From NCBI RefSeq assembly GCF_964204645.1, contig NC_134025.1, positions 2,294,001 through 2,358,000 of the forward strand: 64,000 nucleotides of DNA, read 5' to 3'. Positions 18,435-42,042 of this stretch are shown piece after piece. The translations under genes and the position numbers were made by a program. This DNA comes from Tubulanus polymorphus (taxonomy: Eukaryota > Animalia > Nemertea). The stretch's first letter is position 1. Every line of letters begins with the position of its first letter. The notes under the pieces are model-generated. The model searched no databases, had not been told where the DNA came from, and was given only the letters and a program-made list of their open reading frames with translations.

Positions 18435-19685
18435 ATGTTGTCGTCGTCGAACAGCTTAGAAATGAAGCCGTCAACTCAAAAACGGCGCTGTTCGTTTAGT
18501 ATTTGTAGCGTTCTCGGTATGGAAGAAGATGAACCGATGGAAAATACTTCCACAAATAATAACTATCTCAGAAATGGAGAAAGTCATCGCGAAGATTCGG
18601 AAAATCTGGACGTCGAAACTGTTGATGTTGATGAAATCGGCAGCGGAGGGTCATCGCCGGTGCCCGAAATCGGCGACGATTCTGTCGAGTTTAAAACCGA
18701 TAGCGATCATTTGATATTAGGACTTAATAAAACTGAAGATGGCGAAGAAATGGAGTTAAAATCGACTGATGATAAGATTAAGGCGAACAATAGCCGCGGT
18801 GAGAAACCGCCGTTCAGTTATAACGCGTTGATAATGATGGCGATTCGTAGTTCACCCGAAAAACGACTCACATTAAACGGAATTTACGAATTCATTATGA
18901 AAAACTTTCCGTATTACAGAGATAATAAACAAGGTTGGCAAAATTCAATTCGTCATAATCTGAGTTTGAATAAGTGTTTCGTTAAAGTACCAAGACATTA
19001 CGATGATCCGGGTAAAGGTAACTATTGGATGTTAGATCCTTCGAGTGATGATGTATTTATTGGCGGTACGACAGGTAAACTGAGAAGAAGGTCGACTGCG
19101 GCCTCGAGGAGTCGACTCGCTGCCTTCAGGCGCTCGGCTCTTCCCACTAGATTTCCGGACATTTACTCGTTAACTCAACAAGGGAAACCAGTATGGCCAA
19201 TGTCACCAGTTCTGCTGCAGCATCCGAACGCAGTCAATGCGTTAGGTCGTTACGGGTTCTCGTACGGTCTTTTAGACCCGAGCCAACATTTCATGTCGAG
19301 GAACGTGTCTTCGTTATTACCATCGAGAGCATTTTCAATGGACAGATTGTTAGCTACTGATACAACCGTTCCGCCGAGTACATCACCCCCAGCCGCTGCC
19401 GCTGCCGCAGCTGCTGCTTCTGCCGTGTCATTCTGGAATTCTTTACGAACCGCCTCGACGAATCCAGTTTTCTACCAGTCCTCGCAGCTTTCCCCTTCAT
19501 TATCGGCAGCGACTCACCCCGCATTCACCGGCGCAGGGTATCATCACCCATCGATACGGACCTTACCGCTATCTCAAATAGGTCAAACTGGACCGACGAA
19601 CCTATCCGTACATCAACAAACCTCGCCCAAACCGGCGCACAGTGAACGAACTCAATCTGTGACTATTATCAATCGGACAAATTAG
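18435..19685 (+). CDS. FoxG: Forkhead box G (FoxG/BF-1/sloppy-paired-like) transcription factor, paralog a, single coding exon, 416 aa
   Basis: Forkhead domain [38 protein letters not shown]...[35 protein letters not shown] is followed by the FoxG-diagnostic [20 protein letters not shown]-terminal eh1 motif FSICSVLG (18495-18518), C-terminal Groucho-binding-like FSMDRLL (19332-19352), poly-Ala tract. Confidence 0.97.
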
Positions 19686-19709
19686 TTTATGATATATCAT
19701 TCAACTATC

Positions 19710-19730
19710 TATATATATATATATATATAT
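19710..19730. repeat. (TA)n microsatellite in the FoxG-a 3' UTR
   Basis: Directly visible about 25 bp after the stop. Confidence 0.85.
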
Positions 19731-21765
19731 CGTAGGATATCAATTTTCTAAACTAAAACTATTTAAAGTGAGTATATACGTATTTTAACTGTATGTGCTA
19801 AACTCCGTACTAGTCATTTATCAGTATCTAATGTTTTGCCATCATTTGTAATAATTCGATCGGTTGAAATATAAAGCTCTTTATAATATTCAAAACAATT
19901 GATAACTTTTATGAAATGTTTGTGTAAAGGAGGTATTTGGATTAGTAGTAACTATAGAATCAATAGTTTCTGGACTTTTTTCCACTTTTTACTAGTGACA
20001 CCTGGCGAATCCTGACAGATGTATTTAAGGTATAGCATAGGTTTATATGCATCGATTTGAAAAAAACCTCAATGACTAATTCAACTGATCCTGAGATTAC
20101 GTCAGGCAAATACATCCTCTCCGTGAGTCTGCAATTTTAGAATTTGCCGCGTACAAACCTGCCCCAAAACATAAAACATCTCTCGAGTGGTAGCTTTTTT
20201 AGGTTTTTGATATTGAATTCGATTAAAAATGATTAACACGAGGAAATAAGGACCGCGCCCGAGTGTACAGTTTCATGCATTGATCTCAGATACTTGTGTG
20301 TTTGAAAACGGAGATTGTATAAGAGTTATCGAGGCAATTCAACAACACGACAACACCTTAAAAATCACCAAAACACCGAGTATAATATTCATGATGTGTC
20401 GCTTTAACGATTCCGGACAATTTTCAAAACAAGCATGTAAGCGTAGGAAGGCTTGGAACGTATAAAATCGATACAGAGTGAAGATGTTGGTTACGCCTTT
20501 CATAAAAAAAAACACAAACAACATCCTTAAACATTATGTAATTACATTTGTATATTTGAAAATCGCTTCAGAGCTTCAAAAATGATGGTTCATTTTGTCT
20601 TTTCTTCAACTGCACGGTCTGCGTTCAAAGCCTACGGTGCCTCGAGCTTCACAGCCCCGGAAGTCGTACCGCTTTCATAGCCTTACCGAGCGAAACAAAA
20701 CCCTGCGGGGGTCTTTACAACAAGATAGTTTTTAAAAAACTGGAAGAGCTTTCATATCAATCTGTCTCACCTCACAGCGCTGTACGACAGAGCCGAATAG
20801 TCAGAATGTATATGGTTTTATAAAATACAATCTTTCGGTAAGAAAATATGTTATAATTTCAAACACGCCGAATACATAATGAAATACAAATACAGTCCAG
20901 AAATTACACATTACAGAATTTTCCGGAAAATTCAGGAAGATGTTTTTCCGCAAATACAAGTCAGAAGCATGAAGACTCGTAACTAGATATGTTTATACTT
21001 TAAATACTTGTCACGTATCCCGAAGACATCAACATTATTCAATAAATCAACTTATTTATTGTAAATAACGTTCAAATAATTCCTCAGTTCGATTTCTGAG
21101 ATTTACTGTCAGTAACGCTCTATTTGTTTTCTATCTATAGATATCTATTTTGCCTATAAGCGACGGTTTTATCGATTAATTCGGTTATTCGAGAAAATGT
21201 GCATTTCATATCGGAGATTTCCTCTATCCATGAAATTGTTCAAATAAACACAGTCATTCGACTCGAAATGAATTAAACATTACGATAATTGGAACGTACG
21301 CACAATATCTCTTTCTTTCTTTAGTTCGAGAATTATTTCAGTTTTTTTCCACTTCCCTTTCGGTTTTCGGTCGGTTTATACATGAGAATTGAAATTCAAA
21401 TGAACCGATCGCATCAAAGACCGAAAATGTTTTACTTTCGATAATTGCAACTTTGTACCGTCTGTTCTGATGCTGTCATTGCTTTGTAAAACTACCAACT
21501 CATCAACTACACGACTGTTATTTGCAGCGAGCTAAGGTATAATCCGGTCATAATTATGGCCAATAATAGTCGGCAAGAAGATCGCAACTTCTTCACTTCC
21601 GTAGGTAAGCCCCTTGTGTTCACGACGTCCGTCGGCCAACACGCAAAAACCCTCTCCCACGAGGCTTAATTACGTTTGATGAAGTAAAATGAGGAAGCGA
21701 ATCTGCAAATATTTTGTCACAAAACATGATTAGCTTTCATGTCGGTTATAGATGAGACGGTATTG

Positions 21766-40479: not shown

Positions 40480-40660
40480 TTTGCCAATGATATTGTTTTG
40501 TAGAACAGCGTGAAGTAAAGTCGTCGATGAAGCGCCGTGATTGGTCAATTGCCGGTTGCGACTATTAGCAGCCGAGAGGCGGTTCAGACGCGCGCTGATT
40601 GGCTGACGAGGTACGTTATGTTCACTATTTACACGCGAGAATTGAGTCGTCATCTACAGA
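40480..40660 (+). promoter_or_regulatory. FoxG-b proximal promoter with multiple CCAAT boxes
   Basis: GCCAAT about 40482, TGATTGG 40538-40544 and 40596-40602, in a locally GC/CpG-rich patch upstream of ATG 40780. Confidence 0.55.
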
Positions 40661-40779
40661 ACCACACTGCTCACCAATTCGAACACATCGTCTCATCAAA
40701 ATCGGCTCTTCTACGAAGAATATGGTTATTTAATCGTTCAACTGACTGCTTCATAATCAAACAACTTAGTCGAACGATC

Positions 40780-42042
40780 ATGCTGCCTACAACGCAAAAG
40801 TTACGAAGTTCGTTCAGTATCTGTAGTATGTTGGGTATGGCTGAAGAAACTGAGGAGCGCGATAGGACACCGCCACCACCAGCAGAACCACCAATACCGG
40901 CGACAGATATCAACCGCTGTCGATACCAATCAGAGGATGATGACGATGACAATAACATCGATGACGATATGGTTGATGTAGAAACTGTTGAAAATCAACA
41001 AGAAACTGTAATCAAAGTTGCGCAGTTGTCACCGATTAGTGACTGTGAGGAGAATAAGGAAAATAAATACGAGGACAAAATGTACGATTCTAGTCACGAC
41101 GATTCCGGTTCTAGTTCACCGGATAAACGCGATAGCGATGATAAGAGTGATAAGTCGGATTCTAACGACGAAAAGGTGAAAAACTCTCGCGGTGAGAAAC
41201 CGCCGTTCAGTTATAACGCGTTGATAATGATGGCGATTCGTAGTTCACCCGAAAAACGACTCACATTAAACGGAATTTACGAATTCATTATGAAAAACTT
41301 TCCGTATTATCAAGAAAATAAACAAGGTTGGCAAAATTCAATTCGTCATAATCTGAGTTTGAATAAGTGTTTCGTTAAAGTACCCAGACATTACGATGAT
41401 CCGGGTAAAGGTAACTATTGGATGTTAGATCCTTCGAGTGATGATGTATTTATTGGCGGTACGACAGGTAAACTGAGAAGAAGATCGACTACGGCCTCGA
41501 GGAGTCGACTCGCCGCTTTTAAACGTACGGGATATTATCAACGTTTTCCTGCTGGACTTTACCCGGCGTACGGCGCCGATAAACCGACGCATGTTTGGCC
41601 GGGAATGATACCGTATAATCACGCATCAAATGCAGCTTTGGCAATGTCTCGTTTCGCCTACCCGTACGGAGGACTCATGCCCTCAGCCGCGCCTGCAATT
41701 CACAGACCCGTTCCGTCTAGTAACTTTTCTGTCGATAGACTATTAGGAAGTGATGTTCGCGTGCCAGTGTCTCCTACGCATTCACCAGTTATGAGACCCG
41801 GTACTATAATACCGAATTCAGGAGTTCCGAATTCTCCTCCAAATATCTACTACCATCCACAGCTAGCCGCGCATCCCGCTTTCGATGCTTATTTACGAAC
41901 AATGTCGATGGCCTCGATAGCCGCGCATCAGAGTCAAGCGATGTCGCAGCATTCACCGCCGTCAACTCCACCACCGATGAGGCTGAGAACACCGGAATCT
42001 GTGTATCAACAAACTGTACCGATACTAGCTCAAACTAGTTGA
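40780..42042 (+). CDS. FoxG: Forkhead box G transcription factor, paralog b, single coding exon, about 420 aa
   Basis: Same forkhead domain and [17 protein letters not shown] signature; eh1 FSICSMLG (40813-40836); FSVDRLL (41725-41745). The first in-frame ATG is at 40780 ([14 protein letters not shown] aligns with [14 protein letters not shown] of paralog a). The ORF-track start at 40537 is a GTG lying in the promoter. Confidence 0.96.

Follow-up and report, generated by a model that had tools for sequence, protein, structure and literature searches.

The hexapod engrailed/invected genes are ancient tandem duplicates whose homeoboxes are said to undergo ongoing conversion, which confuses their orthology (PMC6444547, PMC3199776, PMC10455198), and in Capitella teleta the Dlxa/Dlxb homeobox has been read as a mosaic conversion limited to the most conserved region (PMC3199776). 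Conversion has also been suggested for Capitella eve1/eve2 (PMC3359188), and the argonaut tyrosinases provide another case (PMC9635652); statements on published systems, here and below, refer to the consulted sections of the papers cited. The window analysed in this work is a stretch of 64,000 nucleotides from the nemertean Tubulanus polymorphus (NCBI RefSeq assembly GCF_964204645.1, contig NC_134025.1, positions 2,294,001 to 2,358,000, forward strand), and contains two tandem FoxG genes, copy 1 and copy 2, whose forkhead boxes are nearly identical in DNA over 326 bp. Very probably the tract results from interlocus gene conversion that recurs between these paralogs over a distance of 22.4 kb.

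The closest likeness is with Capitella Dlxa/Dlxb, also linked developmental paralogs with divergent proteins and a near-identical DNA-binding box that includes silent sites (PMC3199776). The Capitella tract measures 150 bp, enters an intron and belongs to a tail-to-tail pair (PMC3199776), whereas the FoxG tract covers 326 bp in genes of the same orientation placed 22.4 kb apart; unlike Dlx, FoxG also offers population evidence and an inverted third copy that has mostly escaped. The engrailed/invected case involves many species, a tail-to-tail arrangement and a homeodomain (PMC6444547, PMC3199776), in contrast to the single species and unfixed age of the FoxG pair. The human red/green opsins (~24 kb apart) share with it the tandem arrangement, ongoing conversion, a diagnostic shared polymorphism and a local amino-acid island, but most of the opsin gene is homogenised and the function of its island is established (PMC3924837), whereas in FoxG the box only is affected and the island falls at FoxG-variable positions. 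Several FoxG genes per genome are likewise found in Drosophila (slp1, slp2 and fd19B, the first two closely linked) and Tribolium (slp and slp2), although conversion is unmentioned in the consulted sections of these Fox accounts (PMC8918179, PMC9269926).

Neither is conversion of FoxG mentioned in the consulted sections of Fox-repertoire accounts (PMC9539403, PMC8918179, PMC9269926, 10.1101/2025.01.09.632129), and no earlier report of it, or of forkhead-box conversion, was found in the literature searched, the coverage of which left out most subscription journals and supplements. The FoxG pair is a real and well-supported example of a known process (concerted evolution as in engrailed/invected and Capitella Dlx), in a gene class for which no earlier report was found; the population evidence, the third copy and the parallel pairs of the genome add to its strength. 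Box-limited concerted evolution would then reach from the homeobox to a forkhead gene, with within-species evidence of continuing exchange. FoxG is described as the least duplication-prone class among flatworm Fox genes (10.1101/2025.01.09.632129), and a cluster of three genes is seen here in that class.

The near-identical tract and its flanks

The two genes, their N-terminal motifs and the tract are placed as follows (window positions).

18435..19685, + strand: FoxG copy 1, a single open frame of 416 residues, with strongly derived flanks; its branch in the tree of 3' flanks is long
40780..42042, + strand: FoxG copy 2, a single open frame of 420 residues from the ATG at 40780
18495..18515, + strand: FSIxSxL motif of copy 1, presumably eh1-like, a homology marker of the flanks
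40813..40833, + strand: FSIxSxL motif of copy 2, presumably eh1-like
18795..19120, + strand: near-identical (probably homogenised) tract of copy 1, comprising the forkhead domain and a FoxG-conserved basic extension; copy-2 reads have loose ends at 18795 and contigs have them at 19120
41188..41513, + strand: near-identical (probably homogenised) tract of copy 2; copy-1 reads have loose ends at 41188 and 41513

The Pfam Forkhead domain (PF00250) is present in both copies (residues 123-208 of copy 1) and is of the FoxG type, with human FOXG1 (7cby) as the top match in the PDB (E 1.4e-67; next class 3.3e-43) and 93-98% identity between the box and named FoxG proteins. An N-terminal eh1-like motif is a feature of the FoxG (BF-1/sloppy paired) class. 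The nearest named homolog is FoxG of Lineus ruber, and the junction before the box is common to this protein and both copies. The reading frame of copy 2 is already open from 40618, upstream of its ATG. On sequence comparison, copy 2 is the more conservative of the two and copy 1 the derived one.

The boxes align over 326 bp with no gaps and 7 differences (98% identical), placed at box positions 123, 124, 125, 129, 198, 297 and 304 and leaving the initial 122 bp identical, just as the sequence-only reading had reported. These differences cause the amino-acid changes R/Q, D/E and A/T; three are plainly synonymous, the number given by that reading, and the class of one further difference depends on the path taken (Nei-Gojobori split 3.5/3.5). 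Within the box, 96 of 99 same-residue degenerate codons are identical, with a synonymous divergence (dS) of 0.054, versus 38/100 in the flanks (Fisher p 5e-21). The low flank dS that had been named as a counter-indication is absent, the proportion of synonymous differences (pS) being saturated at 0.73 and 0.78. Flank DNA identity (0.59 and 0.61) is no better than that of shuffled sequence (0.59), in line with the earlier statement that the flanks cannot be aligned; the flank proteins, however, are still collinear, with short motifs in order and 27-39% identity depending on the alignment, and copies 1 and 2 are therefore full-length paralogs. Even the residues adjoining the tract (N-S before, A-A-F after), though shared by copies 1 and 2, are encoded by different codons.

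The homogenisation had been described as domain-restricted. The near-identical tract is indeed confined to the FoxG-conserved block, all of which it covers, but it reaches ~60 bp beyond the Pfam Forkhead domain; the start of the tract coincides with the onset of conservation among 305 FoxG proteins and its end with the drop in conservation, within ~4 residues. A recent duplication of the whole gene followed by very rapid divergence of the flanks would suit the long branch of copy 1 in the flank tree. This is extremely improbable: the flank synonymous sites are saturated, which protein selection does not bring about, and the recent duplicate pair L143/L144 of the same genome still shows 93% identity over 967 bp.

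Several comparisons bear on whether synonymous sites of the box could be held fixed in both copies by selection at the DNA or RNA level, through an exonic enhancer, RNA structure or codon bias, with no exchange. Extreme codon bias can yield a synonymous identity of 0.87, but in copies 1 and 2 the GC content at third codon positions is 0.38 and codon usage alone predicts just 38.6 identical codons out of 102, close to the 38/100 counted in the flanks. The 117 other pairs formed by the 16 intact forkhead boxes found in the genome have 2143/4941 synonymous codons in common (43%, maximum 61%), and six pairs from the Hox-type cluster with homeodomain identity of at least 85% have 114/285 (40%). From a metagenome set of 80 FoxG-like loci, the 61 boxes whose protein identity reaches at least 85% across a minimum of 75 codons share with copy 1 only 16-49% of synonymous codons, with DNA identity not above 75.8%; these loci belong to distant animals, and it is for such animals, constraint peculiar to close relatives lying outside their reach, that the DNA-level constraint raised by the sequence-only reading is absent. 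Among 3131 metagenome box pairs, synonymous identity is at least 0.885 in 30, and all of these have flanks of at least 0.86 where measurable. None of the 80 loci carries two boxes. On these comparisons, protein constraint or codon usage does not account for the identity of the box. Synonymous sites vary freely with respect to other animals and to the third copy, synonymous single-nucleotide polymorphisms (SNPs) segregate within the box itself and the same pattern is seen in unrelated homeobox pairs, so that selection on DNA or RNA is a very unlikely explanation.

Read evidence and a polymorphism carried by both copies

Polishing can go wrong in repeats of such a length, and an assembly or polishing step might have merged two differing boxes into one sequence. 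The sequence-only reading had named long reads as the check on this; the copies were examined here with raw Illumina reads of run X5 (~12% of the run sampled), from a study other than that of runs X1-X4, and with contigs. Depth of X5 on copy 2 nearly doubles, from ~9 in the flanks to ~16.6 in the box (means of bins, the latter slightly inflated by a few reads from other Fox genes); the loose ends of reads at 41188 and 41513 match the copy-1 flanks, and the copy-1 letter is present at 7/7 differences. Reads placed on copy 1 run into copy-2 flank sequence at 18795 and carry the copy-2 letter at 5/7 differences, the last two being seen in contigs only. Contigs from three further runs cross from the unique flanks of either copy into the box that both share. 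Each copy is read on its own flanks and there is therefore no assembly collapse, an explanation left with almost no probability; both copies exist as separate loci.

One synonymous site of the box is polymorphic in both copies.

18800, + strand: synonymous T/C site (Gly GGT/GGC) of copy 1; copy-1-anchored unitigs have both letters in X1 as well as X2
41193, + strand: the same T/C site of copy 2; copy-2-anchored unitigs have both letters in X1 but only C in X2

This site is at box position 6, and was phased with 55-bp unitigs anchored by 25 flank bases. In X1 the depths are T 7.1 / C 13 for copy 1 and T 9.5 / C 18 for copy 2, and the shared unitigs (T 16, C 31) match the sum of both copies; in X2 copy 1 shows T 21.5 / C 12.6, whereas copy 2 has C alone. 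Among the raw reads of X5, C is found in 8/12 and 7/11, unphased. Recurrent mutation at a methylated CpG was considered as a source of the shared SNP and judged unlikely, CpG being undepleted (observed/expected 1.5-1.9). At 41484 the copy-1 letter appears in 9/10 reads of X5; it is unphased and was left uncounted as a converted site. A polymorphism common to paralogs is considered very strong evidence for conversion (PMC3924837), and the T/C site suggests, with modest strength, that interlocus conversion is ongoing.

Ectopic conversion homogenising the DNA-binding domain, as proposed from the sequence, is supported by the synonymous contrast, the controls and this polymorphism; none of the three refuting conditions set out with the proposal was borne out, two having been checked in full and one in part. 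Several observations count on the other side. The shared status is seen at one of two polymorphic box sites, the second SNP (18983/41376) appearing in X5 only; a coincidence would produce the shared T/C with a chance of ~3%, estimated from the flanks, where 361 sites hold 6 synonymous SNPs; and the phasing comes from Logan unitigs of one study (X1, X2), which may be the source of the assembly. The metagenome pair L094/L091, of extreme AT codon bias, reaches a synonymous identity of 0.87 despite unalignable flanks. No flank-level ortholog of copy 1 or of the third copy was found, including in a 50% library and a search with copy 3, and the 3' flank protein tree gave no resolved placement of the copies.

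A mechanism for the recurrent conversion can be proposed from these data. Purifying selection would hold the protein block of FoxG almost unchanged and without indels, leaving it as the sole stretch similar enough for pairing in recombinational repair; conversion of the box would be cheap, the same domain being needed by both copies, and the flanks would have drifted beyond the pairing threshold and thereby escaped. The tract is in this case likely a by-product of protein conservation and not a targeted system, and the end result is probably a pair of factors that prefer the same DNA targets but differ in their effector regions. On the rough relation d ~ mu/c, conversion at ~20x the mutation rate per site would correspond to a box dS of 0.05.

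The third copy, the difference island and the age of the duplication

The sequence-only reading spoke of two FoxG paralogs. Both are real, but a third FoxG gene just before the window was missed. It was found by genome search ~2.1 kb ahead of the window (G000:C1:2290750-2291856, minus strand, 368 residues), head to head with copy 1 and inverted relative to copies 1 and 2; no eh1-like motif was seen in it. In its box ~20% of residues differ, and 51/80 synonymous codons are common with copy 1, above both the 43% background (p 2e-4) and its own flanks (17/51, p 0.001). This excess suggests, as far as sequence comparison can tell, an older or rarer exchange and a later escape; slower synonymous change within the box could explain part of it. 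Discrete tracts were not detected in copy 3 by a permutation test of runs (longest run 11 codons, p 0.17).

The differences between copies 1 and 2 are clustered in a 7-bp island.

18917..18923, + strand: difference island of copy 1, with 4/7 differences, immediately ahead of the recognition helix; codons Y-R-D
41310..41316, + strand: difference island of copy 2; codons Y-Q-E

The clustering (4/7 differences in 7 bp) has p 4.5e-4, or 0.048 when the three adjacent differences are counted as one event. A single recent event, either one conversion or a double crossover that replaced one box with the other, with no recurrent exchange, would look alike in leaving one tract, two sharp edges and low divergence. 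It is nevertheless unlikely in view of the clumping of differences, the T/C polymorphism carried by both copies and the synonymous excess of the third copy, which suggests older exchange.

Divergence peaks under conversion can mark selected sites (PMC3924837). At the island positions 306 other FoxG proteins have RE (145), RD (64), KE (37), KD (23) and QE (0), and these positions rank among the most variable of FoxG, which weighs against a selected island. It is accordingly doubtful that conversion welds both DNA-binding domains into one unit while selection shields the island, in the loop ahead of the recognition helix, and gives the copies different binding preferences, with box-limited conversion as the rule in the young-to-middle-aged tandem transcription factors of this genome. 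If this were true of the island and of the NK1-, Irx- and Vsx-type series presented below, old duplications would be hidden by box-limited conversion.

As to when the pair arose, the 3' flank of copy 2 resembles Lineus ruber FoxG (43% identity) more closely than it does copy 1 (27%), which fits either an old duplication or a fast-evolving copy 1. Residues 225-416 of copy 1, used alone as a flank query, matched only themselves among 7993 candidates, and a box protein tree (quick version only), like the flank tree, gave no resolution. Measured against the box the duplication is an old one, in relative and not absolute terms. The earlier warning that forkhead-only trees would misdate it holds for DNA distances, with which the box makes the duplication look too young; as protein the box is 93-98% identical across bilaterians, and a tree built from it is simply uninformative. 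In practical terms, probes, primers, RNA interference fragments and short-read mapping derived from the box cannot separate copies 1 and 2, and transcriptome assemblies may merge them.

Other gene pairs of the genome and neighbouring features

For a homeobox survey 40 of 115 matches were fetched, picked for proximity to another; the NK1-, Irx-, Vsx- and Six1/2-type pairs described here were compared by genome sequence alone, and their class names are our assignment from motifs. The NK1-type pair L126/L127 (G000:C2:6935330, 6953608) lies 18 kb apart on the same strand and is 95% identical over 191 bp, with 52/55 synonymous codons identical. The Irx-type pair L145/L146 (G000:C3:1133773, 1216636), inverted and 82 kb apart, is 90% identical over 258 bp, with 43/51 synonymous codons identical and one long near-identical run. 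Flank DNA of both pairs is unalignable (0.57-0.60). Intermediate values are found for the Vsx-type trio L133-L135 (G000:C1:10438346-10470776), linked homeobox exons with short identical runs (28 and 24 of 42), and for the Six1/2-type pair L141-L142 (G000:C1:11337127, 11380321), with 79% DNA identity and 27/46. Box-limited conversion is thus likely to act on several gene pairs of this genome, and their varied spacing and orientation within one genome allow testing what lets paralogs escape conversion.

Other arrangements were encountered in the same searches. L143/L144 (G000:C5:20740967, 20775009) is an inverted, divergent TALE-like homeobox pair that, by its sequence identity given above, looks like the product of a recent duplication of the whole gene. 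Ten Hox-type homeoboxes (L116-L125, G000:C6:5.32-5.63 Mb), all on one strand, span ~320 kb in an apparently intact cluster, which served as the negative control. Two forkhead boxes, which we take to be FoxC-like and FoxF-like (L008/L014, G000:C3:5842434, 5865957), stand head to head 23.5 kb apart.

Within the window, an open reading frame (ORF) of 194 codons (32383-32967, + strand) lies between FoxG copies 1 and 2 and has no match in Pfam or Atlas. Two single-frame p24/emp24 genes (54577-55284, + strand; 56036-56740, - strand) are placed tail to tail and are 34% identical, DNA similarity between them being absent in the self-comparison of the window. Two tandem or low-complexity repeat arrays occupy 13964-14700 and 21767-22393, the latter GA-rich and yielding spurious RE-repeat ORFs.

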